Below, piece after piece: positions 4,527 to 46,500 of a DNA stretch of 64,000 nucleotides. Positions within the stretch are counted from its first letter, which is position 1. Each line of letters begins with the position of its first letter. The stretch is from positions 13,856 through 77,855 of the forward strand of contig WGDC01000083.1 in the NCBI GenBank assembly GCA_015493475.1, read 5' to 3'. The notes below the pieces were generated by a model. That model did no database searches. It had not been told where the DNA came from and saw only the letters and a program-made list of their open reading frames with translations. This DNA is from Deltaproteobacteria bacterium. GTDB lineage: Bacteria > Desulfobacterota > Dissulfuribacteria > Dissulfuribacterales > QOAL01. A program made the position numbers and the translations under genes.

Positions 4527-5942
4527 GTGAAAAGAGACAAAATTATAATAGCAAACAGGGGCGAGATCGCCATAAGGATAATGGGGGCCTGCAGGCAGCT
4601 TGGCCTCGACTATGTGGTGGTGTATACCGAGGAAGACAGGGATTCCGGGCACGTTAAGACCGCCGCCGCAGAGAAGGGAAATGACGCCGTCTTCAGGATA
4701 GCGAACTATAAAGACCCGAACGAGATCTTTGCAGTTGCAGACTACTGCGGCGCCACAGCTGTGCACCCAGGTTACGGCTTCTTCTCGGAGGATTTTCGTT
4801 TTGCCCGTAGGGCAGCTATCAGGAATCGTCCCATCGCCTTCATAGGGCCGAGATGGGAGGTCATAAGGGATCTCGGCAGCAAGATAAACACCAAGCGGAT
4901 TGCCAAGTCCCTCAATATCCCTGTGATCCCCGGTTCGGACGAGCCAATATACAGCGAGATAGAGGCGGAGGCCTTGGCGGAGGAGCTGTTTCAAAAACAG
5001 AGGGACGATGGCATACGGAGGCCATCCATTCTGGTAAAGGCCTCGGCTGGCGGCGGAGGCATGGGAATAGAGGAGGTAACCCGCTTAGACGTGTTCCGTC
5101 AGGTTTACAGACGGATACAGAACTACGCCAAGAGGCAGTTCGGAGATGAAGGGGTGCTTATCGAGCAGTGTATGAAGGGTTACCATCACCTTGAGGTGCA
5201 GCTTCTTTGCAGCAGACACAAAGAGGTGGTGCATTTTGGCACAAGAAATTGTACCATCCAGAGTACGGGGCGCCAGAAGCGTATAGAGGTGGCGCCGGGT
5301 TTTGACCCTGAATACGTGGCTTATCCCTTTGACGCCTACCGTGTACTCGAGCAGATAGTCAACTATTCCATTCGTCTTGCAAGGGAGGTGGAGTATGACA
5401 ACGTGGGCACCTGGGAATGGATTGTCACCAGGGATGGCAGGCCGTACCTACTTGAGGTCAATACGCGTATCCAGGTAGAAAACGAGGTGTCTGCGTGTAT
5501 ATCTAGGATTTCCAAGCATAAGAGACCTGTAAACCTCATACGGGAGCAGATAAGAACGGCCCTTGGGGAAAAACTGCGGTATTCTCAGAAGCATATTTTT
5601 TTTGATGGCACAAGCATAGAACTCAGGATAGTTGCGGAGGATGTAAAGAGGGGCTTTGCTCCCTGGTGCGGAACCATCACGAGATTCGAGTTTCCCGAGG
5701 AACCATGGCTGCGTGTCTACACCCATGTTCCCCGGGACGTGGCTTATGAAATTCCAACGGAGTACGACCCCAATCTTGCCCTTGCCATTGTATGGGGGCA
5801 GGATAGCGAGGAGGCCAAGGCGCGTGCCAGGCAGTTTCTATCCCGTACGATCATAGAAGGCGTGGACAGCCTTGGCCAACCAATCGTCACCAATCTCGGT
5901 TATCTTTATGAAAGGGTAAACGACATTCTGAGGTTCGTATAG
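4527..5942 (+). CDS. accC: Biotin carboxylase (ATP-grasp)
   Basis: GTG start. 'KIIIANRGEIAIRI' N-terminus, ATP-grasp core and 'EVNTRIQVE'. Confidence 0.85.
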   Translation: MKRDKIIIANRGEIAIRIMGACRQLGLDYVVVYTEEDRDSGHVKTAAAEKGNDAVFRIANYKDPNEIFAVADYCGATAVHPGYGFFSEDFRFARRAAIRNRPIAFIGPRWEVIRDLGSKINTKRIAKSLNIPVIPGSDEPIYSEIEAEALAEELFQKQRDDGIRRPSILVKASAGGGGMGIEEVTRLDVFRQVYRRIQNYAKRQFGDEGVLIEQCMKGYHHLEVQLLCSRHKEVVHFGTRNCTIQSTGRQKRIEVAPGFDPEYVAYPFDAYRVLEQIVNYSIRLAREVEYDNVGTWEWIVTRDGRPYLLEVNTRIQVENEVSACISRISKHKRPVNLIREQIRTALGEKLRYSQKHIFFDGTSIELRIVAEDVKRGFAPWCGTITRFEFPEEPWLRVYTHVPRDVAYEIPTEYDPNLALAIVWGQDSEEAKARARQFLSRTIIEGVDSLGQPIVTNLGYLYERVNDILRFV

Positions 5943-5974
5943 GCGAAGAAGATTATAGCTTCTATAAAAGATAG

Positions 5975-8245
5975 ATGGATCAAAAAAGGCTTTTAGACAG
6001 CGGAAAGTATATCAGCGAGCTTACCGATCGAATAAATTATATAGCCGATATAAAGGGTGGTATCGAGTGGGGAAGCCTGCGGGACCTTCTTGATCGGGTC
6101 CAGGCGGTTAGAAAGAAGATGTTCGATCTCCAGGAAGACGAACTTTTCGTGGAGCTTGACCAGGTGGACAGAAGGCTGGAGTTTCTGGAAGATCAGGTCG
6201 CCCAGGACCTTTCTCCCATAGAGACGGTAAATATCGTGAGAAGCCCTCAACGATTTACCCTTCAAGATATCCTGGAAAATTGCTATGACTCCTATACGGA
6301 GCTTGGCGGTGAGGGCGAGTGCAATATTGATCCTGCTGTCGTGGTAGCCAGGGCCACGATAACCCGCAGGGTGAAGAATAAGCTTTATTACCACCAGGTG
6401 ATGGTAATCGGCCACGAGAAGGGCTTTGGTGAGGAATTCAGGAACGGGGGATGTGCAAAGCCGTGGGGGAATGAAAAGGCCCTTCGTTATATGAAGGTAG
6501 CGGAAATCGAGGGAATTCCCATTCACAGTTACATATTCACGCCAGGTGCCTATCCTGTAGAAGACTATCCAGGCGCTGCCCAACAGATAGCAAGAAACCT
6601 GTTTCGCATGTCGAGGATTACGGTCCCTATAGTGGCCTTTGTATCCGAGGGCGGCTCAGGCGGAGCGGAGGCTATGGGTCTTGCCGACCTGCGCTTGATG
6701 GCTTCAAGGGGCTATTATTCTGTTATTTCGCCAGAGGGGGCGGCGGCCATAGAGGGCAGGATAAAGGAGGGGGGGAAGGTTCCGAGGGAGCTTGTGGAGC
6801 ACTGCGCCGATCAGTTGAAGATGACCGCCGAGGACAACCTCAGGCTCAAGACCATAGACCGGATAATAGAGGAACCACCACTCGGCGCAAGGCGCGGGGA
6901 TTTCAAGTTCTTCAGGCGCTTGCGCTACGAGATGGTCAAGGCGACGGACGAGGTGGTCCTTGAGACAAAGAGTTTCCGGATGTTCAGATCATACGCCCTG
7001 AAGAGGCAGAGCCAGGAGAGGTCCAATGGTTTCCATGACGAGTTTGACATACATATTAAGTGGTCTCTTACGGATTCCGAGAAAAAACGGCTCATAGAGC
7101 TTCGATCCAGAAAATACAGGGCCATGGGCAAGGGTTACAAGGAGCTCAGGCAGTCCATCGGCAGCCGGTTGTCCGAGGCGGTGGAAACTGTGAGGCAGAA
7201 TTACTACGACATACGTTACGGCCTTCTGAGGCAGCATTCCAGGCAGGTCCAGAAGCTCATTGAAGAGGTCTCGAGCGAGGGTTCCGTATTCCTGAAGACT
7301 GTTACTGAACCCGTGAGGGCGACCTATGACTTCGTTCTGCCCAAGCCCAAGGTGACAAACGGAATAAACCAGCAGGATATCTTCAGAAGGTCCATATTCA
7401 TGCAGGACTGGGAGCAGTATATCAGCCCCCTTGCCAACGAGGACAAGACGGTCAGTTGTCCCAATTCGGAAAAGTATGGTTGCAGGGACCTTTGGGTGCC
7501 TGATCTTTACGGAGAGTTTTGCGGGGTTTGCCCAACTTGCGGCCACCACTTCCCCTTGGAATACCAGTGGTATCTTGAGAACCTGTTTGATCCAGGTTCA
7601 GTCCGGGAGTTCAACAACCACATAATCTCTGCAAATCCTCTTAAGTTCCAGGGTTTTGACGAGAAACTTAAAAAGGCCATAAAACGTACTGGAAGACGTT
7701 CTGCCATTATCACCTTTGATGCATCGGTTTTTGACATAAAGATAGTGGTGGCCATGCTCTACAGCGACTTCAGGAGTGGAACCGTGGGATCGGCGGAAGG
7801 TGAGAAGTTCATTAGGGCCTGCGACAGGGCAAGGGTGACAAGACGCCCTTTTCTGGCATACATTCACACCACCGGTGGAATAAGGATACATGAGGGAACC
7901 CTCGGGGTAATCCAGATGCCGAGGTGCACTTTGGTGGTTAGGGAATACATTGACAGCGGCGGTCTCTATATAGTGGTTTACGACAACAACTCATATGCCG
8001 GGCCTGTGGCAAGCTTTCTCGGCTGTTCTTCCTACCAGGTGGGCATAAGGTCTTCCAGGATAGGTTTTGCCGGGCCAAGGGTCATTAGGGAAACCACTGG
8101 AGCGGACGTGCCTCCCGATTATCACAGCGCTAAAAACGCCTTGAAGCGTGGCCATATACAGGGTATCTGGGACAGGAGGGAGTTCAGGAAAAATCTGTTC
8201 GAGGCCCTCATGACCATGGGCGGCCCCCATTTGTATTACAAGTAG
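5975..8245 (+). CDS. Fused carboxyltransferase: AccA-like N-half, ~170-aa linker, AccD-like C-half
   Basis: aa ~130-330 carry 'VMVIGHEKG...FTPGAYP...SEGGSGGAEAMG...SVISPEGAAAI', which is AccA-like. aa ~506-756 carry a Zn ribbon 'CPNSEKYGC...CGVCPTCGHH' followed by 'GGIRIHEGTLGVIQM...IGFAGPRVI', which is AccD-like. Confidence 0.8.
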   Translation: MDQKRLLDSGKYISELTDRINYIADIKGGIEWGSLRDLLDRVQAVRKKMFDLQEDELFVELDQVDRRLEFLEDQVAQDLSPIETVNIVRSPQRFTLQDILENCYDSYTELGGEGECNIDPAVVVARATITRRVKNKLYYHQVMVIGHEKGFGEEFRNGGCAKPWGNEKALRYMKVAEIEGIPIHSYIFTPGAYPVEDYPGAAQQIARNLFRMSRITVPIVAFVSEGGSGGAEAMGLADLRLMASRGYYSVISPEGAAAIEGRIKEGGKVPRELVEHCADQLKMTAEDNLRLKTIDRIIEEPPLGARRGDFKFFRRLRYEMVKATDEVVLETKSFRMFRSYALKRQSQERSNGFHDEFDIHIKWSLTDSEKKRLIELRSRKYRAMGKGYKELRQSIGSRLSEAVETVRQNYYDIRYGLLRQHSRQVQKLIEEVSSEGSVFLKTVTEPVRATYDFVLPKPKVTNGINQQDIFRRSIFMQDWEQYISPLANEDKTVSCPNSEKYGCRDLWVPDLYGEFCGVCPTCGHHFPLEYQWYLENLFDPGSVREFNNHIISANPLKFQGFDEKLKKAIKRTGRRSAIITFDASVFDIKIVVAMLYSDFRSGTVGSAEGEKFIRACDRARVTRRPFLAYIHTTGGIRIHEGTLGVIQMPRCTLVVREYIDSGGLYIVVYDNNSYAGPVASFLGCSSYQVGIRSSRIGFAGPRVIRETTGADVPPDYHSAKNALKRGHIQGIWDRREFRKNLFEALMTMGGPHLYYK

Positions 8246-8251
8246 GCTGTT

Positions 8252-8896
8252 ATGGAAATAAATCTCAAGGACCTTCTCAAAAAATACAAGTCCCATCCCT
8301 ATGAGGATCACGAGATCAAGACCGCTCACACGGGCATTGTTCATCTTAATGTGGAAGACGGGCAGGAGGTGAGCGGTCCCACAGGCCGGTGGAAGCACAG
8401 GCCTGGTACCCTTCTTTACGTGCTTGAAAGGGAGGGTAATCCGAAAAGGATTACGTCTATGTACACAGGTTTTGTTACGGGTCTCAGGAAGGAGCTCGAC
8501 TCCAATTTTGTTCAGGCCGGGGTGCCAGTTATGGTTATCCGCCACAGCCTTAACAAGGATGAAATCATTGACAGGATACTGCGAGAGGTACTTTACGTAT
8601 TCCCTGCCCCCCAAAGGGCCAGGTACTTTTTTACCCCCGAGGTGGCTGCGGCCATGGAAAAAGAGGGGGCAAACATTCTGAACATCAAGGATGGAGATGA
8701 GATCGTTATCATGTCTCTGATGAAAAGGGATACACTCCTTTCTTATCTCGGTCCTCCTGGCGTTCTATACAAGGTGTATTTCAGGCATGGAGACCTGATT
8801 GAGCAGGGTGCTCCCTTGCTTGGTATCTGTTCACCGGAAAGGCTGCCCTTTGTGGAAAGGATGATTCAGAGAATTAGGACTGAATGGGATGATTGA
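8252..8896 (+). CDS. Biotinyl/lipoyl-like carrier protein with non-canonical motif
   Basis: The C-terminal half 'IKDGDEIVIMSLMKRDTLLSY...GVLYKVYFRHGDLIEQGAPLLGI' fits the BCCP beta-hairpin pattern, but has SLMK instead of (E)AMKM. The N-terminal half looks like a second, Lys-less copy. It is the third gene of the acc-like operon. Confidence 0.5.
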   Translation: MEINLKDLLKKYKSHPYEDHEIKTAHTGIVHLNVEDGQEVSGPTGRWKHRPGTLLYVLEREGNPKRITSMYTGFVTGLRKELDSNFVQAGVPVMVIRHSLNKDEIIDRILREVLYVFPAPQRARYFFTPEVAAAMEKEGANILNIKDGDEIVIMSLMKRDTLLSYLGPPGVLYKVYFRHGDLIEQGAPLLGICSPERLPFVERMIQRIRTEWDD

Positions 8897-10288: not shown

Positions 10289-13270
10289 ATGGATGCATCA
10301 TCGGTTTCTGAGTATCTGAGTTCTTTTAGAAAATCAAGGACCCTTGGCGAGCTTATTGCCTATTCCCACGCAGAAAAGGGGCAGAAGGCGTGCTACAGGG
10401 CCCTTTCCACCCCCCTTCCGCACGGGTTAGAAAGCGCCCTTGGTTCCTGCGGTATAGAGAGGCTTTTCAGCCATCAGGCCAGGGCCATTGATTTTGTCAG
10501 AGGTGGCAGGAATGTTGTTGTAGCAACACCTACGGCAAGTGGCAAGTCCCTCATTTACAACATCCCCATACTGGAGCGCATGATGATGGAAGGGGAAGCA
10601 CGGGCACTTTACCTTTTCCCCTTGAAGGCACTGGCCCATGACCAGTTAAAGGTCCTTGACAGGTTGACCAGGAATCTTGACGGTGCCGAGATTACCCATG
10701 CCATCTACGATGGCGATACCACCTCTTACAGGCGGGGAAAGATACGGCAGGACCCACCAAATTGCCTTTTTACCAACCCGGACATGCTCCATCTTTCCAT
10801 CCTGCCCTATCACGACGCATGGTCTACCTTCTGGAAGGGGCTGAAGTTCGTGGTGGTGGACGAGGTACATACCTACCGTGGCATAATGGGAAGCAACATG
10901 GGCTGGGTGTTCAGGAGGCTCAGGCGCATCTGCAGCCTTTACGGCTCAGACCCGACCTTTATCCTGAGTTCGGCCACAGTGGGCAACCCTCATGAGCTTG
11001 CTATGGAGCTTATCGGCCTTGATTTCAAGGTGGTTACGCAGAGTGGTGCACCAAAGGGCAAACGGCACCTCATCCTGGTTGATCCAAAGGGGGCAGGGGC
11101 GGCCCAGACGGCTGTGCTCCTGATTCTTGCTGCACTAAAGAGGGGGCTCAGGACCATCTGCTACACCCAGTCAAGAAAGCTTACCGAGCTTGTAAGCCTC
11201 TGGGTCGGCCAGAGGGCTGGAGGTCTTGCGGATAAGGTCTCGGCTTACAGGGCTGGTTTCTTGCCGGAGGAGAGGCGCTTGGTCGAGAAGCAGCTTTCAG
11301 GGGGTGATCTCCTTGCAGTCATCTCCACCAGTGCCCTTGAGCTTGGCATAGACATCGGGGTGCTGGATCTTTGCATTCTCGTTGGATATCCGGGCACGCT
11401 CATGTCGCTCAGGCAGAGAGGTGGACGGGTGGGAAGAAGCAGCAGGGAGTCTGCGGTAATAATGGTCTCTGGCGAGGACGCCCTTGATCAGTATTTTGTA
11501 AACAATCCTAGGGAGCTTGTTGAACGGCCTTCTGAAAAGGCCGTGGTGAATGTCTTTAACGAGAAGGTGGTTGGAAAACATCTTGTATGCGCGGCAAGCG
11601 AATCTCCCATAGGACTTAACGAGCAGGTGTTAAAACCAAGGGTTGTGAGGGAAAAAGCCAGCAGGCTGGTTGAGGCGGGAAGGCTCTTTTTAAGTGCAGA
11701 CGGGGAAAAGATCATCTCAATGAGAAAATATCCCCAGAAGGACGTGGATCTTCGCGGCACTGGCAGCTCCTACCAGATAGTGAACCTGGAAGACGGCAAG
11801 ACCATAGGCTCCATAGACGGGTTTCGTGCGCTCAGGGAGACACACCCAGGGGCGGTATATCTCCACCGCGGCCAGAGTTTTCAGGTGGCAAGGCTTGATA
11901 TTGAGACAAGGCGCGTGGAGGTGAGGCCGGCCAGGGTGGACTACTTTACGAGGGTCAGGGCTTCAAAGGATACGGAGATTCTCGATGTGGAAAGGAGCAG
12001 GCCGCTCTTCGGTACAATGTGTTATTGGGGCAGGCTTCTTGTCACAGATCAGGTAACGGGTTACGACGTTCTACAGATACGGGGGCAGAAGCTCATAAAC
12101 AGGGTGGAGCTTGATTTGCCGCCCCAGCGTTTTGAGACGGAAGGCCTCTGGATAGAGATACCAGCCATAGTGAAGGCAGCCTGCGAAAAGGCGCTTTACC
12201 ACTTTATGGGAGGAATACATGCCCTTGAGCACGCGTGCATTGGTGTCATGCCCCTTTTCGTGCTCTGTGATAGGAATGATCTCGGGGGTATCTCCACAAC
12301 TTTTCATCCCCAGCTTTCCGCTGGTGGCATATTCGTTTATGACGGTATTCCTGGTGGCGTGGGCCTTACAGAGGCTGCCTTTGAACGGTGTGACGAGCTC
12401 TTGGATCTCACCCACACCACTATTTCTTCATGCAGGTGTGAAAACGGCTGTCCATCATGCGTGCACTCCCCGAAGTGTGGTTCAGGAAACAGGCCCATAG
12501 ACAAGGAGGCAGCGCTTTTTCTGTTGAGGGATCTTAAAGGCTCTCTTTCTGCTACTGGAGCGAAAGCGGTAGCCCGGACTGGAGAAACTGTAATGAGGGG
12601 TGGCGGGTTGACAAGAAATCCTGCGGCTGATTCCGGGGTTGCTCAAAAGTCCCTGATAGGGGGGGCTGGTCGCAGGGTAAAAAGGCCTTTTCTGGTTGTT
12701 TCGGAAATACGCTTTGGGGTGCTCGACATTGAGACCCAGCTCTCGGCCAAGGAGGTGGGAGGATGGCACAGGGCCGAGCGCATGAGGGTGAGTTGTGCCG
12801 TTCTTTGGGATTCTATGACTCGTTCCTACGCTGTTTTCAGGGAGAAGCAGCTTCCCTTCCTGTTCAGCCTTATGGAAAAATTGGACCTGATAGTGGGTTT
12901 TAATATCAAGCGTTTTGACTACAGGGTGCTTTCTGCCTATACAAAGGAGCAGCTTTCTCTCCTGCCGACTCTCGACATGCTCGAGCACGTCCACAAAAGG
13001 CTTGGCTACAGGCTTTCGCTTGATCTGCTGGCATCTTCCACCCTTGGAACGAAAAAGAGTGCAAACGGCCTCCTGGCCCTGAAGTGGTGGAAGGAGGGCA
13101 AAATCAGGAAGATAATCGACTATTGTAAAAGGGACGTTGCAATAACGAGGGACCTTTTCCTTTTTGGCAGCAAGGAGGGTTTTCTGCTTTTCAGGAACAA
13201 GGAGGGCTCCATAGTGCGCCTTCCGGTTGACTGGAACCGTGACCATCCTCTGAAAAAGCATTTTGAATAG
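10289..13270 (+). CDS. DEXH-box helicase with DUF1998 Zn-Cys domain fused to a C-terminal RNase H-fold (DEDD) exonuclease domain
   Basis: Helicase motifs: motif I 'ATPTASGKS', motif II 'VVVDEVH', 'SSAT' and motif VI 'QRGGRVGR'. The DUF1998-type cluster is 'CRCENGCPSCVHSPKCGSGN'. The last ~190 aa carry 'VLDIETQ', 'GFNIKRFDYRVL' and 'YCKRDVAITRDLF'. Confidence 0.8.
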   Translation: MDASSVSEYLSSFRKSRTLGELIAYSHAEKGQKACYRALSTPLPHGLESALGSCGIERLFSHQARAIDFVRGGRNVVVATPTASGKSLIYNIPILERMMMEGEARALYLFPLKALAHDQLKVLDRLTRNLDGAEITHAIYDGDTTSYRRGKIRQDPPNCLFTNPDMLHLSILPYHDAWSTFWKGLKFVVVDEVHTYRGIMGSNMGWVFRRLRRICSLYGSDPTFILSSATVGNPHELAMELIGLDFKVVTQSGAPKGKRHLILVDPKGAGAAQTAVLLILAALKRGLRTICYTQSRKLTELVSLWVGQRAGGLADKVSAYRAGFLPEERRLVEKQLSGGDLLAVISTSALELGIDIGVLDLCILVGYPGTLMSLRQRGGRVGRSSRESAVIMVSGEDALDQYFVNNPRELVERPSEKAVVNVFNEKVVGKHLVCAASESPIGLNEQVLKPRVVREKASRLVEAGRLFLSADGEKIISMRKYPQKDVDLRGTGSSYQIVNLEDGKTIGSIDGFRALRETHPGAVYLHRGQSFQVARLDIETRRVEVRPARVDYFTRVRASKDTEILDVERSRPLFGTMCYWGRLLVTDQVTGYDVLQIRGQKLINRVELDLPPQRFETEGLWIEIPAIVKAACEKALYHFMGGIHALEHACIGVMPLFVLCDRNDLGGISTTFHPQLSAGGIFVYDGIPGGVGLTEAAFERCDELLDLTHTTISSCRCENGCPSCVHSPKCGSGNRPIDKEAALFLLRDLKGSLSATGAKAVARTGETVMRGGGLTRNPAADSGVAQKSLIGGAGRRVKRPFLVVSEIRFGVLDIETQLSAKEVGGWHRAERMRVSCAVLWDSMTRSYAVFREKQLPFLFSLMEKLDLIVGFNIKRFDYRVLSAYTKEQLSLLPTLDMLEHVHKRLGYRLSLDLLASSTLGTKKSANGLLALKWWKEGKIRKIIDYCKRDVAITRDLFLFGSKEGFLLFRNKEGSIVRLPVDWNRDHPLKKHFE

Positions 13271-13465
13271 AGACCTCTAAATAGATTCTGTAGTTCTATG
13301 TCTTAGAGGCATGATCCCACCCCGATTTTGTGCAGCATTATCTCGGATATTTTGGTAGGCTGTTTGTCCTTAATGATCCCTTTTGATAATGGAGGTTGAC
13401 ACAGGGGGGCATTATACAAGAAAGGATTTCGATTATTGAAGGTAAAGGAATCCTTTCTTGGCATC

Positions 13466-14969
13466 CAACGGTGTCCGGAAGCATTCATATATACCGCTTC
13501 AGCATAGGCCATAATTCTACCTCTAATAACCCGTAGTGCATTGTTTTTAAAAAACAATACCTAAAAAACCTTATCACCTGCCTGCTGACCTTGGAGGTAA
13601 AACGGAACAGGTCATGTAAAAAGAGACGACATGCGGGACGATTGTCTTTCCTATTCTCGGATTCTACTTGCATTCTTTTATCTTGTTTGGCAAGAGCCTT
13701 TTCATCCTTGATGCCATGTTGCTCAGCATGTTCACGGAGAAATATGGCAATTAATAGGCTAGTGATAATCGCCAGTAATGCTTGATTTTCTATACTAACC
13801 CTCTTGTACCTCCAGGCCTTGCTTGCTGATAGATCATTCTTCCAGGTATCAAAACATTTCTCTTCGTCCCAGCGACGAAGAAAAAGAAATGCTATCATGC
13901 CGGGTTCCAGAACAAGCTCATTGGTAAGAAAGAGGAATTCTCTTCCGTTAGGAGCACAGTACGTTATCCTCCGCCATGTTGCGGTACCGCCTGACCTCAA
14001 TACTATATGCTCATCTTTCAGCACTCCCTGATTTTCTCTAATGGCGGCTACCGGCTGTTCTTCTGAAGATTCCACAACCAATGAGGCTTTCATGCGGCTT
14101 ATCATGGTGATGCCATATTTTGTCTTCTTGCTGTTCCAGTAGGAAGCATCTATAAAACCTCTGTCCACCAGAAAAAGAGCATTCCTTTTATATAATCTCT
14201 GAAAATTGCAGGATTTCAATACATTGATCTCATGCGTAGTATCTGTTTCCACCACGACATCTACTGGACAACCCAGCCGAGCATCAAAAAAGGTCAACAA
14301 CCCATGTCCCTTGGGGTTGTCTTTACCTCCTTGGCGAGGAGTTACTTTCCTGTAATGGCAACTTTCTTTCTGATAAGTGCCATCCACTGCGTACACTGAT
14401 CTGCCTGCCAAACAGGAAAAATTCTCAAGCCGATCAGTAACATTTCTTGAGGCCACATCTTGCAGTCTCCGTATAACTCCCCTTAAGATTATCTCTACGA
14501 TTAACAGAGGCCATAGCATCTGACCAGGTAGATCTGGCCAGTGGGGGACCGTCAATCGGATCGAGATGAAAGAGTTCCTGTACTTGATCTCTAAGAGAGG
14601 TTTGTCCCTTAATGTGTCGAAGTACTCCAAGGGTGATAAAACTTTCCATATCCAATGTCTTGAATATGCCAGGTTTGAATCTGACATATTCAAGAGCCTC
14701 TATGGCAGGATTGATAAAAGTTCCCAAGACTGTATTTTGGGTCAGCGTTTTCATAATGTTAAAGAGGCGGTTGGTATTGTGAGGCATGGTCTTATCTCCT
14801 TAACTAATTGATATCAATGCTATTTTTCAGACCAGCCTTGTCAATATCTGTCAAGCACTTTTTTGAATTTTTTCTCTATTTTCTCCTATAAGCAAGAATA
14901 AGAGCCGTTACAGCCCTTCCTTGCACATATAAAATTTGGTTGTCGCCCTGCTATTTCGGACACCGTTGA
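13466..14969 (-). mobile_element. IS4-family insertion sequence (~1.5 kb) with target-site duplication
   Basis: The terminal inverted repeats are CAACGGTGTCCGGAAGC (13466-) and the reverse complement of ...CGGACACCGTTGA (-14969). They are flanked by an identical 8-bp direct repeat TTGGCATC at 13458-13465 and 14970-14977. The element encloses a DDE transposase. Confidence 0.8.
13485..14787 (-). pseudogene. IS4-family DDE transposase, frameshifted
   Basis: The catalytic residues sit in 'YAVDGTY', 'LVDRGFIDASY' and F-x2-R-x3-E-x6-K ('FLRRWDEEKCFDTWK', the YREK signature). The N-terminal 117 aa (ORF 14434..14787, '...ARSTWSDAMASVNRR') are in another frame and overlap the main ORF, which implies a frameshift near 14470-14510. 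Confidence 0.75.
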
Positions 14970-15030
14970 TTGGCATCTTAAAAGTCTGGCGTTATCCAAG
15001 GCGATGGAGACGGATCCAGGCTTTGGTGCT

Positions 15031-16332
15031 TTACAGGTTCAGGCCATAGTGGAGCGCCGCTTTTGGAACTGCCTGCCCTGTAAGCGGCTCCACAAGCTCG
15101 TTTCTTTCCTTTTTAAAGGGAATAAAAAATAGCCTTATCTCCTTTATCCGTATCTTGGTTTTGTCTGCAGCTTCAACCATTTTTTTTCTCTTTTTCAAAA
15201 GGGACATGAAGAGGAAGGTAAGGGACTGGATGGCAGTACCCACTCCTATGTTGATACAGTGGGCATCTGGCACTGTGGCTGCGTCCCTGCTCTTTAAGGT
15301 AAGAAAGGGGAGTTGCGAGCTGCTCATTCTTTTTCCAAGCCGGATGAAAAGAGACGGGTTTACACTGAAGGCAGGAATGACGAGTTGTACGGGCTCTTTT
15401 GAAAAGTTTTCCGGAAACTGCCTGTAGGGGTAAAGATGTGATAGGAAGGCCCTTCTGTCCGGGAAGGGGAAACCTTGCAGCTTAAGGCTAAAGTGGTAAA
15501 AGGGCAGAAATTTCATGCCTCTTTCCACGTTCCTGGTAAGGATGTGGGCCTTTTGGGGCAGAAAGCGGCTGTTCCCAAGGCCCCAGAGCCTCTTGCACGC
15601 CTTGCAAAAAAGGACCGATGCCATGGAAAGGGCGGGAAGATCGGTTCCACATTCTGGGCATATCAAGGGCATAAAGCTTACTGCCATATTTGAAGCTGGT
15701 CCTTTCCCCTGGTCCACATCGTTAAGGGAGATCTTTTTAACAAGGCTCTCTAAAGGCCCGTTCCTTTTTACCTTAAAAAAATGTCGTCTCTTCTCCCAAA
15801 GGGGGCTTAGTAGAAGCTTTTCATCCCTTTCAACAAGCTCAAAGGGCGCACTTATTATGGTGATCTTTTCGCTCAGAATGAAGCTTGAAACAGGACTTTC
15901 CCTGAGCCCCGCCTCGATTCGCATGTCCACCTTCCTGATGGCATCCTGGGGGGCAAGAAACGATCTGCCCAGTTGAAGGGGGCCGGTATCAAGACGCATG
16001 TCCGAAAGCTGTGTTGCAAGGCCAAGGGAAGGAAGGCCATCTAGGCCAGAAAGTGCTGGGATGGTTGAGTCAACAAGGCTTGTTTTTACGCTCTTGTCAT
16101 GAAAGAGGCGAAAGCGAAAGCCCTTGAATCTCCAGTAAGGCAGAAAGACCCTGCTTCCTTGAAGAGGTGTTGCAGAATCAATGGGAGAGAGTATGTAGCT
16201 GAATATGCCGCTTTGAGGCACAATGTAGAGGCTGGTCTTACAAAAGGCGCACCTTAAAAGAGGGTCTCCAACCTCAAGATCAACCTTGCCTCCGCACTGC
16301 GGGCAAAAGCCCCATGCCTTTTCCGGGGCCAT
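15031..16332 (-). CDS. Hypothetical protein with two zinc ribbons (internal duplication)
   Basis: The ATG at 16332 overlaps the upstream stop (TAATG). There are two units: 'CPQCGG..(13)..CAFCK ... FLPYWRF' and 'CPECGT..(13)..CKACK ... FLPFYHF'. I recognise no enzymatic motif or clear TM helix. Confidence 0.6.
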   Translation of the reverse strand: MAPEKAWGFCPQCGGKVDLEVGDPLLRCAFCKTSLYIVPQSGIFSYILSPIDSATPLQGSRVFLPYWRFKGFRFRLFHDKSVKTSLVDSTIPALSGLDGLPSLGLATQLSDMRLDTGPLQLGRSFLAPQDAIRKVDMRIEAGLRESPVSSFILSEKITIISAPFELVERDEKLLLSPLWEKRRHFFKVKRNGPLESLVKKISLNDVDQGKGPASNMAVSFMPLICPECGTDLPALSMASVLFCKACKRLWGLGNSRFLPQKAHILTRNVERGMKFLPFYHFSLKLQGFPFPDRRAFLSHLYPYRQFPENFSKEPVQLVIPAFSVNPSLFIRLGKRMSSSQLPFLTLKSRDAATVPDAHCINIGVGTAIQSLTFLFMSLLKKRKKMVEAADKTKIRIKEIRLFFIPFKKERNELVEPLTGQAVPKAALHYGLNL

Positions 16333-17483
16333 TACCTGACGGGCTTGCCGCACTGGTTACAAAAGGATGCCTGGGGAAGGTTCTCGGCTCCACAGTGAGG
16401 GCACTTCTGGGGCAGGGGTTCACTGCCTGCCGGGGTTCCGCAGCTTGGGCAAAAGCTTGCCTTGGGAGTGAGATTCTTGCCGCATTTTGCACACCGTCTA
16501 TAGACAAGGATCTGGTGGCCACAGTTTGGGCAAAAGCGGGCGTCGCCGTTTATGTCCGCCCCGCATTCCGGGCACTTCTGAGTTGTCTTTCCTGGTGGCG
16601 TTGGCCCTCCATTAGGAGGTGGGTTTGTTGAGCCAAAAAGTCCCATGGAGCCAAGAAGCCCTGGTACCATGAGTCCAAGCCCCATGCCGATGCCGCCCTG
16701 GGCCATGGACTGGCCCTGTGCGGACTTTTCAAGGGCCATGGCCGCCTTCATCTTAACAAGGTCGGGGAGATCGCCACCAAGAAGCTCGAGTCTTGTCCTG
16801 TCATCTATTGCCGCCTGTACCTCGGCAGGAGGGGTAATGGCGTTTATAAAGAGGTCTTTAAGGGCTATGCCGTAGTTGGAAAAATCCCTTGCAAGCTCCC
16901 TGGAAAGGCCCTCGGCAAACTCGGTGTACTGGCTTGGAAGGTCCAGGAGGGTGTCCAGTTGTTCTCCAAGATAGTCGTTGAGCCTGGAAACGATAACCTG
17001 GCTCAGGTAGTCTTCCAGTTCATCTATGAAAAAGGAGGGCTTTGTGCCCACAAGGGAGTTCACAAAGAGCACGGGCTGGTTGATCTGGATATTAAAGATG
17101 CCGTGTGCCCTGAGCCGCACCAGGCCAAGTTCCTTGTCCCTGAAGGCCACAGGGTCCCTTGTACCCCACTTGAGGCTCGTAAAGACCTTCATGTTTACAA
17201 AGTATATCTCCGCCCTTATGGGGCTTGTAAAACCCCAGGGAAGGGAAAGGAGCTTTGTGAGTATGGGGATGTTCAAGGTGGAAATTGTGTGCCTGCCAGG
17301 TCCCAAGGCGTCACAGGCAACACCCTGGGAGTAGAATACCGCTGCCTGGTTTTGTCTGACTATTGCCTGGGCACCCAGCTTGAATTCTCCGGAACCCTTT
17401 TCCGGAAGCCTGTGGCAGACCTCGTTTCCAGACTGGTCAAGCCATTCCAGGACCTCTAAAAAAATGACGTTGTTGGTAGACAT
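16332..17483 (-). CDS. SPFH/band-7 domain protein with three C-terminal zinc ribbons
   Basis: 'VIFLEVLEW...GAQAIVRQNQAAVFYSQG...IYFVNMKVFTSLKWGT' matches the COG4260-type SPFH family. This is followed by the Gly-rich segment 'GGIGMGLGLMVPGLLGSMGLFG' and then three CxxC-N(10-12)-CxxC ribbons. Probable start is the ATG at 17483 (MSTNNV), downstream of AAGGAGG. Confidence 0.75.
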   Translation of the reverse strand: MSTNNVIFLEVLEWLDQSGNEVCHRLPEKGSGEFKLGAQAIVRQNQAAVFYSQGVACDALGPGRHTISTLNIPILTKLLSLPWGFTSPIRAEIYFVNMKVFTSLKWGTRDPVAFRDKELGLVRLRAHGIFNIQINQPVLFVNSLVGTKPSFFIDELEDYLSQVIVSRLNDYLGEQLDTLLDLPSQYTEFAEGLSRELARDFSNYGIALKDLFINAITPPAEVQAAIDDRTRLELLGGDLPDLVKMKAAMALEKSAQGQSMAQGGIGMGLGLMVPGLLGSMGLFGSTNPPPNGGPTPPGKTTQKCPECGADINGDARFCPNCGHQILVYRRCAKCGKNLTPKASFCPSCGTPAGSEPLPQKCPHCGAENLPQASFCNQCGKPVR

Positions 17484-17506
17484 GGAAGAACTGGGCCTCC
17501 TTTTTT

Positions 17507-17695
17507 TTAGAGAGTAAAGAGATAACACCTCTGGTGTTCTGGTTCTCTTTTTCTAAACGGAAAAATATGCGCGTTACTTGAGGAAGTGATGTTTGGGCAT
17601 TCCTGTATTCCGGTATGCCTTTTGTAAAGCGTGGTGGAGTGGATCTCCAGATCTCTGGCCACCTCAGCAATAGATTGGTTGCTGCCGGTTATCAT
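17507..17695 (-). pseudogene. IS3-family OrfA (HTH) fragment
   Basis: 'SIAEVARDLEIHSTTLYKR' resembles the HTH of IS3 OrfA transposase subunits. Only ~30 aa are recognisable and no OrfB follows. Confidence 0.5.
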
Positions 17696-17753
17696 ATTAA
17701 CCTTCTCTACTTTTGGGGCAGGACTCTGGTGTGATCAGAAAGAGCGAGCTAGC

Positions 17754-18429
17754 CTATGCCAGCGAGCTATTGCTGCTCACTTCAACTCCATCTATGAACT
17801 TCACACCCTTTATGAGCTTGGCAAGATAGTGGAATCCTCGGATCCTGTGCCAGCGCTTCTCTGCACTCATTCCCAGCTTGTAAATCATCGCCAGCATGGT
17901 GTTCCGGCTTACACATCCCTTGGTTTGGTCCGTCCGACGACGAACCGTGGCAAAGGTAGACTCGATCGGGTTCGTCGTCCGTATTCAGACGACTGATCAC
18001 CCCAGCAGACAGACCTTTCGCCTCGGGGCCGACCAGTACCTCCAAAGCCTCTTGCATTTGCCCAGTAGCTATGCCCTTCAAATACAGCCATGGCAATGCC
18101 GCCTCCACACGCCTAGCCTTCCTCACATACGGCGGCACCAGAGAGGATCGAAATACCACCGGCTCTCCCGTCCGGCTCCTCACCTTGGGTACCTTCACCG
18201 GCACCGGTCCTACGCCGGTCAGAATCTCCCGTTCCGGCAGGTATCCATTGCGCACCACCGCCTTCCGGCCTTGTTCGTCCACTTGCCCTTCATATCGCTC
18301 AAGCAGCTCTGCCAGCTCCGCCTCTACTGCCTTCTGAATCAACCGCTTGGCCCCACTCCGTAACAGCTCCGTTAATGGATCCTCAATTCCCTCTGGTGAT
18401 CTAATGGAAACTACGTTATCCTTACTCAT
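17754..18429 (-). pseudogene. IS256-family (mutator-type) transposase remnant with internal deletion
   Basis: The N-terminal ~150 aa ('...LAELLERYEG...RNGYLPEREILTGVGPVPVKVPKVR...LPWLYLKGIATGQMQEAL') are intact. At ~17985 the frame changes directly into the C-terminal tail 'RTTNPIESTFATVRRRTDQTKGC...LAKLIKGVKFIDGVEV' (my own translation of the minus strand). The DDE core is missing. Confidence 0.75.
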
Positions 18430-18529
18430 GGTGGCGTACCTCCTTTGCTGTCTCAGTTATCCAAAACCGATTTCAGCAGGGTACGCCGCCTTAGTCAATC
18501 ACTCCCCTACACCAAATTAGAGCATAACT

Positions 18530-18573
18530 CATATAAAAATTTCGTTGCCGTCCTACCATGTCGGACACCGTTG
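18530..18573 (+). repeat. Solo copy of the IS4-type right end
   Basis: 18530-18573 (CATATAAAAATTTCGTTGCCGTCCTACCATGTCGGACACCGTTG) aligns with 14926-14969, the inner right end of the IS4 element, with about 5 mismatches and 1 indel. The terminal 13-mer is identical. Confidence 0.65.
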
Positions 18574-43577: not shown

Positions 43578-46500
43578 CTACCCGGCCGATTTTGGCCTGA
43601 AGCCCTTTGGAACAACCATTATGAATCGCTCCCCCGCGTTTTTCATGATCTCTTCCACTGCTTCCGCCTCTTCCATCTGGAACGTGGAGCGCAGTTCTTC
43701 TATGTAAAGGCCAAGGAGCTCTTCTATGTCCCTTATGCCCTCCTTTGTAAGTTTTTCTATCTTGACTATGGCCCCCCTTGCAAGGCGCCTCTTAATCGAG
43801 GATACATCGAAGTTGAATTCCGGGTAGAGGCACTGGTATATTATGCCGCCTGTCATCCCCGCGCACATCCATGGTCCCGGGTCACCGAGGACCACGGCCC
43901 TTCCGCCTGTCATGTATTCGAAGGCGAAGCCCTTTAGGAACGCCTTGTGGGCGATGTTGCCCCTTGAATCGTCAACCGGCTCCGTTATGCGCCTTCCAAA
44001 CACGACGTCCGCCCCTGAAAAACGTATGCATGCCCTGGAGTCGGCCATGTTTTGTATCAGGAAGGTTCCCTTTATTGCGCCGTAGGCAAAACTCTTGCCT
44101 GTGGAGCCGTCCACCCTGTTACCGAGGTAGTTCACACCCTTGAACACGCCGACTACGCCCCCGTAACTCCCCTTTACCGTGCCGTCCTGCGCGCCTCCCA
44201 TTATGCTGGCGTCAACGGCCTTGATGTTGAAGGCGCAAAGGCCGTTTCCAGGAGCGGATGATACGAGCCTTAACCTCGCCTTCTTGTCCGTGGTTATGCC
44301 GTATCTCCTCACTATCTCGCCGGACAGGTAGGTAGCCATGGCTCTGTCTGTACTTTTTATTCCCTGTTCCTTGAATCTGACTACCTTTTTCCCGTCTTCG
44401 AATTCACCTATTATGAGATCGCTTATTAGCTTGGTCAGATAGTTAAGGGGCAGCCTGATGCTCTTTTCCTGGCCGACATCCTGGGGGATTGTAGACACAT
44501 CCGGCCTATCCAGGACCCCTGTCGTATCGAGCCTGTCAAAGAACCTGTACTGCTCAAGGAGATCCGTTCTGCCAACCATGGCCTGGAGATTAGTTTCCCC
44601 GATATCGGCAAGTACCTGGCGTACCTCGTCCCCAAGGGCGCGCAGGAGCCTTGCAAGGTTTTCCGCCTCTATATCCACCTTTCTAGGTGAAAATCCCTTT
44701 ACGCCCCTTTCCTCTGCTTGTTCCTTGGTCTGAAGCTGTGTTGAGATGCCCCTTGGGCAGCGGTCAAGGTGGCACCTGTGACAGCTTATGCACCCAACTC
44801 CCATGAGGGCCACAGTGCCCATTCCGACACGGTTTGCGCCAAGTAGTATCATTTTCACCACGTCGGTCCCGCTTCTGAGTCCTCCATCGGCCCAGACCTC
44901 AACCTTGTCCCTGAGGTTGGATTCACATAGTGCCCTGTGAGCCTCTGAAACTCCCACCTCTATGGGCAGCCCAACGTAGCGTTTGGCGTGTTCCCTGGCG
45001 GCTCCCGTGCCCCCTTCAAAACCGCTCAGATTGACTATATCCGCCCCGGCCTTGGCTATGCCGACCGCTATGGTTCCCACGCCGCTTGTTACAGGTATTT
45101 TCACCGAGACCTTGGCATCAGGGTTTGCGGTCTTAAGCTCCGTGACTATCTGGGCAAGGTCTTCGATGGAGTAAATGTCGTGCTGGTTAGATGGAGATAT
45201 AAGGGGGATACCCGGTTTGCAGTGGCGGGCCTTGGCCACCTGTTCCGAGACCTTCTGCCCCGGCAGGTGACCTCCTTCCCCGGGCTTTGCCCCCTGGCCT
45301 ATCTTGATCTCGAGGTAGTCTGCTGAATTTAGAAGTTCCATATACACACCGAAGCGGCCTGATGCTATCTGTTGCCCCCGGTTTTTCCTGTATTTGCCCA
45401 GCATATCAGGGATCTCTCCGCCTTCCCCGTTCATGCAGATTATGTTTACCTTCTTTGCCGCCTCCGCGTAACTCCTGAAGGAGTTTTCGCCCTGGGAGCC
45501 GAAGCTCATGGCCGCAATTACAATGGGCATGTCATGGTGGCCTATGGATATGTCCACCTGGTCCATTGTGATACGCTTGTTTTCTTCAGCCAGTACGGGT
45601 CTGAGAAGGTGCCTTATGCCAACTGGCATATCTTCGTCTACCTTTGCAATACCCCTTGAAAGTTCAATGTAACCCTTTTTGCCCTCGGCGGTCTTCCTGA
45701 TGATGCGGCCTACCTTGGCGTTCCTGTTGGGATCACCGTAAAGAGGCTGTTCCTCCTCCTGCATCGCCCTCTTGATGCGTTTCTTTGCCAGTGTTTCCAT
45801 GAGGGAATAACCAAGGCCCACATCCTCAGACTTGCAGAAACATGGGACCTTAAAGATTTCCTCAAATTCCCTCGTTATTCCGATTCCGGCGAATATCCTT
45901 CCGTATCCGCAAAGCTCATGGATGCCCATTGTTGACATGACCTTTTCCATGCCCTTCTGGAATACGTCCATGGTGTTCGAGATGGCCTGTGCCGCGTCCA
46001 CTTTTTCGGTGGAAAAAGAGGTCACGGTTTGCCACAGCTTATACGGGTTAAGCGCATCTGTGCCCATTCCGAGCAGGAACATGATGTCGTGGAGGTTCCT
46101 GATGGCGCCTGAGCGAACAATGATGCTGCACCGCCTTCTGAGGTGTTTTTCTTCGAGTTTTTGGTTTAGACAGGCCACGCAAAGGGCCGGATCCATGAAC
46201 GACTCTCCTCCTGCAAAGGCGCCGCTGTCGTCAAGGAGCAGGATTACCGCCCCGTTTCCAACTGCATCAACGGCCTCAGAGCACATGGTTTCAAGACTAT
46301 TCCTGAGACCCTCTTCCGGGCTGAAAAGGCAGTTCAAAACCTTTACCCTTGAAGCATCAATGCCGTTGGCCGAAAAGTGGGAAAGTATATCTTCAAGGAC
46401 CACCGAGCCGTGTTTCCTGGCGAGATGGTCTACCGTGACCCTTCCCAATTCCTTTTCAAGACCCTGGTAATCAAGAAGAAGTGGGCATAGTATCTCAAGG

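Follow-up and report, generated by a model that had tools for sequence, protein, structure and literature searches.

In Bacillus subtilis, mitomycin-C repair involves the products of two genes, the 3′-5′ DNA helicase MrfA, also called YprA (PMC7797055), and the exonuclease MrfB (YprB), which interact by bacterial two-hybrid analysis and act together (10.1101/426304) through a mode of interaction that has been described as unresolved (PMC7797055, PMC11194089). Here we describe a gene in which a helicase of the same MrfA/YprA family and an exonuclease domain are parts of one polypeptide. The gene lies at positions 10289 to 13270 of a 64,000-nucleotide stretch (hereafter the window) of contig WGDC01000083.1, from a Deltaproteobacteria bacterium of the phylum Desulfobacterota. 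The reading that we put forward, with a probability of roughly 0.72, is that it encodes a single-chain helicase-nuclease of the repair, or “housekeeping”, branch of the family, predicted to act in DNA repair or end processing.

Comparison with described systems

Several known enzymes are built along comparable lines. The Werner syndrome protein WRN, which acts in DNA repair and processing, holds a 3′-5′ superfamily 2 (SF2) DNA helicase and a DEDDy 3′-5′ exonuclease in one polypeptide, but its exonuclease is N-terminal and its helicase is of the RecQ type, with RQC and HRDC rather than DUF1998; it is analogous to the window protein and not homologous to it as a whole protein. DinG of Staphylococcus aureus also joins a bacterial SF2 helicase to a DEDD 3′-5′ exonuclease, but its helicase is a 5′-3′, XPD-like enzyme, and its exonuclease is N-terminal and of a different family (PMC12345164). 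SftH of Mycobacterium smegmatis (TIGR03817) belongs to the same family as the helicase part of the window protein and is a biochemically proven 3′-5′ DNA helicase, whereas SftH-type proteins have no C-terminal nuclease. The YprA homologues of TALON do carry a C-terminal RNase-H-fold domain on a YprA-family helicase; that domain is reported to be inactivated, and the gene shares a defence operon with those for a NERD nuclease, TPR-CSD and TBP (bioRxiv 2025.09.15.676423), whereas the catalytic residues of the window protein are invariant and its gene is in no such operon.

Also among the closest is the B. subtilis pair. The window protein shares with it the helicase family (34% identity to MrfA), the winged-helix (WH), OB, connector (CON) and MZB array, and a PF13482-class DEDD exonuclease, 3′-5′ by prediction in the window protein, that is encoded downstream in the same orientation; the logic is likely the same, strand separation by the helicase and degradation of one strand by the exonuclease. 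It differs in being one polypeptide rather than two interacting proteins, and in its nuclease, which is DEDDy, about 180 amino acids (aa) long and without a TPR domain or N-terminal extension, whereas MrfB is DEDDh and has both. The hosts also differ, being anaerobic Desulfobacterota, which makes specificity for mitomycin doubtful.

The fusion itself is already known in outline, and is common. Fused MrfA-MrfB homologues are mentioned by Burby and Simmons in the legend of Fig. 6A (10.1101/426304), and a survey of the YprA family mentions a repair-branch YprA fused to a YprB-type nuclease, while its supplements make no mention of fusions (bioRxiv 2025.09.15.676423). These reports give the same class of architecture but only its existence; the clade, the DEDDy character and the distribution are not described. 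With the helicase family, the partnership with a DEDD exonuclease and the fused forms all published, and the protein being one member of a large clade in public databases, the finding is small as a discovery.

A helicase and a predicted exonuclease in one reading frame

A first-pass annotation, made from the letters of the DNA, had proposed a single polypeptide made of a DUF1998 helicase and a YprB/MrfB-like nuclease. The open reading frame (ORF) starts with ATG and runs without internal stop through 993 aa, NCBI holds a protein identical to its product (P0121), and a single ORF is found again in 67 of 80 related genomes, a recurrence well outside chance, so the proposal of one polypeptide stands. 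A motif search of the 993-aa protein placed the quoted cysteine motif, CRCENGCPSCVHSPKC, at aa 715-730 and found the three quoted exonuclease motifs starting at aa 811 (VLDIETQ), aa 870 (GFNIKRFDY) and aa 945 (YCKRDVAITRD), all where they had been placed. The order of helicase, DUF1998, linker and nuclease also holds, with the boundaries redrawn: the helicase part, which had been ended at about aa 745, is structured to about aa 754, the linker covers aa 755-801 and the nuclease aa 805-985. The parts of the gene are as follows (evidence in brackets).

10289..13270, + strand: whole ORF, MrfA-type helicase, linker and DEDDy exonuclease, 993 aa (ORF; NCBI homologues of the same architecture)
10469..11440, + strand: SF2 helicase core, RecA1 and RecA2, with DEAD at aa 61-234 and Helicase_C at aa 282-384 (Pfam; invariant alignment columns)
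11552..11761, + strand: winged-helix domain, WHD_HRQ1, aa 422-491 (Pfam; alignment to the MrfA structure)
11768..12223, + strand: beta-rich OB/connector region, about aa 494-645, equivalent to the OB-CON of the MrfA “canopy” (continuous 6znp alignment; beta-strands in the AlphaFold2 (AF2) model)
12224..12550, + strand: MZB/DUF1998 zinc-binding domain, aa 646-725, and terminal helix to aa 754 (PF09369; invariant Cys)
12431-12478, + strand: Cys cluster C715, C717, C721, C724, C730 (invariant in the 78-sequence alignment)
12551..12691, + strand: disordered linker, aa 755-801, rich in Gly, Ala, Arg, Ser and Thr (predicted local distance difference test (pLDDT) below 50)
12701..13243, + strand: DEDDy exonuclease domain, predicted 3′-5′, RNase H-like fold, aa 805-985 (PF13482, phrog_403, AF2, Foldseek)
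12725-12733, + strand: ExoI, D813/E815 (conserved catalytic residues)
12917-12919, + strand: ExoII, D877 (conserved catalytic residue)
13121-13135, + strand: ExoIII, Y945-x3-D949 (conserved catalytic residues)

The N-terminal part of about 750 aa is an MrfA/YprA-family DUF1998 helicase, as had been suggested. Pfam recognises the DEAD domain (PF00270, aa 61-234, E 9e-29), Helicase_C (PF00271, aa 282-384, E 1e-10), WHD_HRQ1 (PF22982, aa 422-491) and MZB/DUF1998 (PF09369, aa 646-725, 78.5 bits, E 6e-22). The sequence of the B. subtilis YprA/MrfA crystal structure (PDB 6znp) aligns continuously to aa 27-727 (E 7e-142), and the identity to MrfA, whose gene was taken from its contig, extends over 722 aa (E 2e-149). 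The AF2 model of the whole protein, built with 78 homologues as input, has a mean pLDDT of 88.9, and Foldseek finds MrfA chains as its best PDB matches (E 7e-71, TM 0.75-0.83 normalised to MrfA). The WH, OB, CON and MZB array with its zinc Cys cluster, in which the names OB, CON and “canopy” are those of the MrfA structure paper (PMC7797055), is therefore present by Pfam, by the 6znp alignment and by Foldseek. The best NCBIfam model is TIGR03817 (DECH_helic, SftH-type; aa 46-750, E 3e-209), for which the score of 696.8 bits falls under the equivalog cut-off of 874.1 bits and marks the protein as related to that equivalog but not a member. In 78 full-length homologues the Walker A residues S84-G85-K86, the DEVH box D191-E192-x-H194, motif VI (Q376..G379-R380-x-G382-R383) and the five cysteines of the zinc cluster (715/717/721/724/730) are invariant. 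By analogy with MrfA and SftH, which are the closest characterised relatives and both DNA helicases (PMC7797055), the N-terminal half should be a 3′-5′ DNA helicase.

The C-terminal 190 aa or so had been annotated as an RNase-H-fold DEDD nuclease, which agrees with what we found. The domain passes the threshold of PF13482 (RNase_H_2), the Pfam family that holds YprB, but is borderline: aa 852-956 score 24.3 bits when the whole protein is searched and 29 bits when the domain is searched by itself, against a gathering cut-off of 22; matches to PF01612 in the protein are weak only. Among the PHROGs, phrog_403 (“DNA polymerase exonuclease subunit”) matches the domain best (43 bits, E 5e-11). The AF2 model of the domain has a pLDDT of 93.5, and Foldseek places it nearest in the PDB to the DEDDy proofreading domains found in family-B DNA polymerases and in T7 DNA polymerase (E 5e-7 to 1e-5, TMq 0.5-0.64); in a library of viral structures its matches are DNA polymerases and small phage proteins that are RNase-H-like or “YprB-like”. 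Sequence searches of the PDB with the domain, as a single sequence and as a profile, gave nothing significant. All parts of the DEDDy signature (ExoI D-x-E, ExoII D, ExoIII Y-x3-D) are present on the RNase H-like fold. Every one of the 78 full-length homologues keeps D813, E815, D877, Y945 and D949; in a domain alignment of 70 sequences D877, Y945 and D949 show no variation, and D813 and E815 are kept in at least 90%. The active site is thus predicted to be intact and catalytically active, and its polarity, by analogy with other DEDDy enzymes, should be 3′-5′; since the fold is that of a DNA-polymerase proofreading domain, the nuclease should trim 3′ ends.

Between the two enzymes, aa 755-801 are the sole stretch of the AF2 model with pLDDT below 50. 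The linker has no tblastx similarity even to the closest relative found, in which the exonuclease domain is 89% identical. Between the MZB Cys cluster and ExoI, 156 full-length homologues have a spacer of 23-277 aa (median 75) that is rich in K, R, A, P and S. The linker of about 47 residues behaves as a flexible, poorly conserved tether.

The fused form is standard in a large clade

We scanned genomes at the species level (one genome per species) with an alignment of the nuclease, and counted loci in the best 80. Relatives of the nuclease domain are encoded in at least 573 species-level genomes. Helicase motifs, Cys cluster and nuclease share a single ORF at 67 of the 80 best loci, and seven more are cut by a contig end and have an in-frame Cys cluster; of the remainder, four could not be classified and in two the in-frame part upstream is shorter. 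The 80 genomes inspected are all, or nearly all, Desulfobacterota. The closest relative among the matches listed is a metagenome-assembled genome (MAG) named “Deltaproteobacteria bacterium”, the source of the 89% identity in the nuclease domain.

The same picture is given by the best 120 NCBI homologues, which are about 880-1050 aa long, nearly all 950-1030, and nearly all of the same Pfam architecture. Those among them that bear names, a minority, are from Desulfobacterota (Desulfosarcina, Desulfonema, Ca. Magnetomorum, Desulfococcaceae and Thermodesulfatator), together with a few MAGs under broader labels. Of 156 full-length homologues, 156 keep the exonuclease motifs as well as the Cys cluster, and 149 keep all helicase motifs. 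Because the single ORF recurs across the clade, the fusion is a conserved, selected state and not an assembly error or a rarity, and the fused form is standard in a large Desulfobacterota clade, which takes in hundreds of bacteria of the sulfate-reducer type. In the databases the fused protein and its homologues are named merely “DEAD/DEAH box helicase”, a label that undersells the protein.

The nuclease also occurs without the helicase

A profile search with the nuclease domain over 1.84 billion representative proteins gave 3838 matches at E<=1e-3 and 517 at E<=1e-30. Of the best 150, 26 are full-length fusions and 25 are truncated fusions, shorter but with the Cys cluster still ahead of the nuclease; 31 more are likely fragments, also shorter, in which over 60 aa precede the nuclease and the Cys cluster is absent. 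The others are 53 nuclease-only proteins with a Met start (candidate solo genes), 11 nuclease-only fragments with no Met start, and four in which the nuclease is N-terminal. In two of these four, P0334 (464 aa) and P0354 (356 aa), the nuclease (profile E about 1e-54 to 1e-55) is joined to a C-terminal Sipho_Gp157/Mu Gam-like end-protection domain, which suggests a phage or prophage version of the nuclease module. Searched by tblastn, 50,697 phage genomes gave no match to the nuclease domain, and a recent phage origin is therefore without support.

Five short nuclease proteins were checked in their DNA context. Two of them (P0097 at locus L007 and P0029 at L093) come from fused genes that frameshifts interrupt in long-read contigs, and three (P0077, P0013 and P0060) are real solo genes, none of them beside a helicase, with 57-62% identity to the window nuclease domain. 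The solo DEDDy nuclease genes, identified by the context check, are at these positions.

L001-L004, 6001-6555: solo DEDDy nuclease gene
L005-L006, 6001-6660: solo DEDDy nuclease gene
L094, 5001-5558: solo DEDDy nuclease gene

One solo gene comes after a gene of the arginase family and one after an HD/HD_assoc gene; the one at L094 occupies the usual efp-CNNM/CorC locus, from which the helicase half is missing. If some lineages lost the helicase half and kept the exonuclease in its place, as at L094, the two halves would be shown to be separable. In a rough neighbour-joining tree, which carries no support values, the solo genes are nested among the fused ones; together with their existence this indicates that the nuclease is a separable module. 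An adjacent split pair of helicase and DEDDy nuclease was not seen among the five short proteins.

Apparent frameshifts divide the helicase gene into two to three ORFs at L007 and L093, of the fused clade, and at L090, L091 and L092, which are Bacillus-type mrfA loci. These frameshifted loci come from long-read metagenome assemblies and one draft genome (L090), and yield spurious “solo” MZB or nuclease proteins in databases; counts of fused and split forms by length are thus unreliable without a check of the DNA. At L091, mrfB was not found downstream of mrfA. In Paenibacillus sp. L3-i20 (L089, 5001-8536) the mrfA homologue is truncated at 652 aa and directly followed by a serine recombinase gene (Resolvase/Recombinase domains) and a Peptidase_S24 repressor-like gene, which looks like a prophage or integrative element inserted in the 3′ end of mrfA.

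A proposed single-chain repair enzyme and the evidence against it

The repair reading draws on features computed here, namely the domain anatomy, the conservation of catalytic residues in both enzymes, the disorder of the linker, the conservation of the fused ORF and the lack of a conserved operon; helicase polarity, DNA over RNA as substrate, exonuclease polarity and the repair role would follow by analogy from what is known of the family. In the proposed scheme, the N-terminal 750 aa or so would be an ATP-driven SF2 translocase that tracks 3′-to-5′ on single-stranded DNA, as do B. subtilis MrfA and M. smegmatis SftH, and would open DNA at a nick, a gap, a 3′ tail or a lesion. The tethered two-metal DEDDy exonuclease would digest a 3′-ended strand, and the outcome would be processive resection or excision of a damaged strand. 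Such a scheme would carry over into one polypeptide the “helicase separates, exonuclease degrades” model that has been proposed for excision repair by MrfA and MrfB. The practical value is modest: the fused clade offers a natural single-chain helicase-nuclease in which the hand-over of DNA from an MrfA-type helicase to a 3′-5′ exonuclease could be studied biochemically or structurally.

For a direct comparison, B. subtilis MrfB was retrieved by a search with the MrfA sequence and a look-up of the contig. It is a protein of 413 aa, encoded directly downstream of mrfA in L088 and identical to PDB 8un9 over aa 33-279. Several results weigh against the reading set out above. BLASTP of the nuclease against MrfB gave E 23. 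In hhalign the nuclease family had a probability of 0.3% against MrfB and of 0.8% against an alignment of three MrfB orthologues, where it aligned around ExoII alone; the family profile left the MrfB chain (8un9) unmatched at E<=10 in a search of the PDB, and local hidden Markov model (HMM) comparisons of the nuclease and MrfB, in either direction, gave at most 12 bits. As the nuclease cannot be linked directly to MrfB, the transfer of the mitomycin-repair role of MrfAB to the window protein is an extrapolation. Moreover, no characterisation of a fused enzyme was found in the literature searched, distant MrfAB homologues failed to complement B. subtilis mutants (10.1101/426304), solo genes away from helicases imply that the nuclease can work without a helicase, and an RNA substrate is possible because DEDDy nucleases include RNases such as RNase D.

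The active site and the domain layout set the two nucleases apart as well. MrfB is a DEDDh enzyme with His258 and Asp262 and a C-terminal TPR domain (PMC11194089), and its orthologues retain the H..D pair, whereas the catalytic motif of the window protein is Y945-x3-D949, that of DEDDy enzymes. The score against PF13482 is 136.6 bits for B. subtilis MrfB and 24-29 bits for the window nuclease. In MrfB the core begins at about aa 105, after an N-terminal extension of about 100 aa, and weak sub-threshold TPR matches lie at aa 291-359; the window protein stops 8 residues past the nuclease fold and has no TPR matches in Pfam, so that both the MrfB-type N-terminal extension and the TPR domain are absent from it. 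By every test applied, the window nuclease is not an MrfB orthologue, and its DEDDy clade is but a distant relation of MrfB. MrfB does match phrog_403 as well (27 bits), and its fold has been likened to the DEDDy exonuclease domains of polymerases (PMC11194089); given the shared PHROG and the shared polymerase exonuclease neighbours, both nucleases are plausibly members of one broad group.

The label “YprB/MrfB-like” therefore holds at the broad level of the PF13482 family and fails at the level of direct similarity. Searched separately, the helicase half matches MrfA end to end, and the nuclease half matches the RNase-H fold and PF13482 but not MrfB directly. The first-pass annotation had also taken the fusion as Rosetta-stone support for a coupling of helicase and nuclease. 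The genetic linkage of the nuclease to an MrfA-type helicase is indeed covalent in 67-74 of the 80 genomes; the case for MrfA and MrfB specifically is weakened by a DEDDy, TPR-less nuclease with no direct similarity to MrfB.

Origin of the nuclease domain

We weighed two accounts of where the nuclease came from. In the first, which we hold tentatively and at something short of even odds, the nuclease is an independently recruited, mobile DEDDy module of the proofreading type and not a fused MrfB. If so, helicases of the MrfA type gained a 3′-5′ exonuclease partner at least twice, as the DEDDh MrfB in trans and as the DEDDy domain in cis, and the Desulfobacterota enzyme would be a bacterial WRN-like single-chain helicase-exonuclease.

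In the second, the protein is a straightforward fusion of neighbouring mrfA and mrfB genes, whose nuclease is a true MrfB orthologue that later lost the TPR domain and the N-terminal extension, changed its catalytic base from His to Tyr and diverged too far to be recognised directly. That both MrfB and the window domain pass PF13482 and match phrog_403, that the structural neighbours reported for MrfB (PMC11194089) are those of the window domain, and that the literature calls the fused partners MrfB/YprB homologues are all in keeping with such a descent, and Bacillus-type loci, with mrfB directly downstream of mrfA on the same strand, have the gene order that it needs. It has to contend with the near-absence of similarity in BLASTP, hhalign (around ExoII only), the HMM comparisons and the search that missed 8un9, with PF13482 scores of 24-29 against 137 bits and with Y-x3-D in place of H-x3-D; moreover, highly similar domains occur alone and with Gam-like Gp157, as expected of an independent mobile module. 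We regard a simple fusion as doubtful, though with a real chance of being right. For surveys, the distinction between DEDDy and DEDDh and the separable solo nuclease genes mean that not all “MrfB homologues” are equivalent.

Another reading makes the protein an RNA-processing enzyme, an RNA helicase with an RNase D-like DEDDy exoribonuclease. The database name is no more specific than “DEAD/DEAH box helicase”, RNase D and NrnC are among the DEDDy nucleases (PMC11194089) and PF01612 matches weakly, all of which would fit. Against this, MrfA and SftH, to which the protein is most closely related among characterised enzymes, are helicases that act on DNA (PMC7797055), and the nuclease has proofreading domains of DNA polymerases as its nearest neighbours in structure and a “DNA polymerase exonuclease subunit” family as its best PHROG match; we consider an RNA role improbable.

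Genomic context and the question of defence

Upstream of the helicase gene are genes for a biotin carboxylase, a fused acetyl-CoA carboxylase (ACC) carboxyltransferase and a biotinyl-domain protein, then cobS and a gene for a cobC-like phosphatase, past the end of which the helicase gene starts after 20 nucleotides (nt). The order of cobS, the cobC-like gene and the helicase is common to the three closest genomes (L008-L010), and synteny with them ends exactly at the helicase stop codon. Downstream in the window are mobile elements.

13459-14975: insertion sequence (IS) of the IS4 type with 22-nt imperfect inverted repeats at 13459-13480 and 14954-14975, 189 nt past the helicase stop (inverted repeats)
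13485-14693, − strand: DDE_Tnp_1 transposase ORF of the IS4-type element (Pfam)
17782-18429, − strand: Mutator-family transposase fragment, truncated ORF (Pfam)

Because of this adjacency a defence role had been left open. Under such an account the protein would be part of an anti-phage system of a DISARM-, Druantia-, Dpd- or ARMADA-like kind, moving with mobile DNA, and it is true that the IS4-type element starts 189 nt past the stop codon and that the PADLOC models BrxHI, SngC, DruE and DrmA match the protein. These matches are confined to the generic helicase core (aa about 55-430); in PADLOC the nuclease domain matches nothing and no defence helicase matches over its full length. The closest relatives have neither the IS4-type element nor the Mutator fragment. 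Because its alignment with the repair-type MrfA runs end to end, the protein has no space for large insertions of the sort reported in defence homologues.

Across the 80 loci no operon is conserved. In a clustering of ORFs the only neighbours to recur are housekeeping genes, for CNNM/CorC at 20 loci, for an SH3-like protein at 11 and for a prephenate-dehydratase-like one at 10; efp is a neighbour at the three loci whose called genes were listed (L007, L093 and L094). No defence gene recurs beside the homologous loci, be it a methylase, a PLD nuclease, a DrmB-like gene or another, and the clustering of neighbours held no system-specific partners (DrmB/DrmC/methylase, DruH, a BrxHII-like helicase with a PglX-like methylase, or a PLD/Vsr/NERD nuclease). 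In the window itself the neighbours are cobS, the cobC-like gene and the IS, which do not make up a defence operon. With hundreds of species-level genomes that hold a nuclease relative and essentially one phylum among the 80 inspected, vertical descent is likelier than a mobile defence island. We therefore rejected a defence role as very unlikely.

Still less credible, and likewise rejected, is a catalytically dead RNase-H-fold domain with a structural or regulatory role, for which the inactivated C-terminal domains of the TALON helicases are a precedent (bioRxiv 2025.09.15.676423), since the D, E, D, Y and D of the active site are conserved across the homologues, as given above, and the three motifs recur in 156/156.

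Other features of the window

Scans for promoters and terminators around the helicase gene gave results no better than those for shuffled sequence. Downstream, a 38-nt direct repeat with 84% identity occurs at 14931-14968, overlapping the right end of the IS, and at 18536-18573, beside the truncated Mutator-family ORF. The two copies bracket two genes, one for a zinc-ribbon protein (15031-16353) and one of the SPFH/Band-7 type that encodes several zinc ribbons (16332-17528), and the region 14931-18573 may be a composite or rearranged mobile region. Upstream, positions 4527-8896 hold an unusual acetyl-CoA-carboxylase-like cluster.

4527-5942: biotin carboxylase
5975-8245: 756-aa protein with an AccA-like (ACCA) and a second carboxyltransferase domain
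8252-8896: 214-aa protein with a weak biotinyl/lipoyl domain

The largest ORF of the window encodes 1520 aa and lies at 43578-48140 on the − strand.

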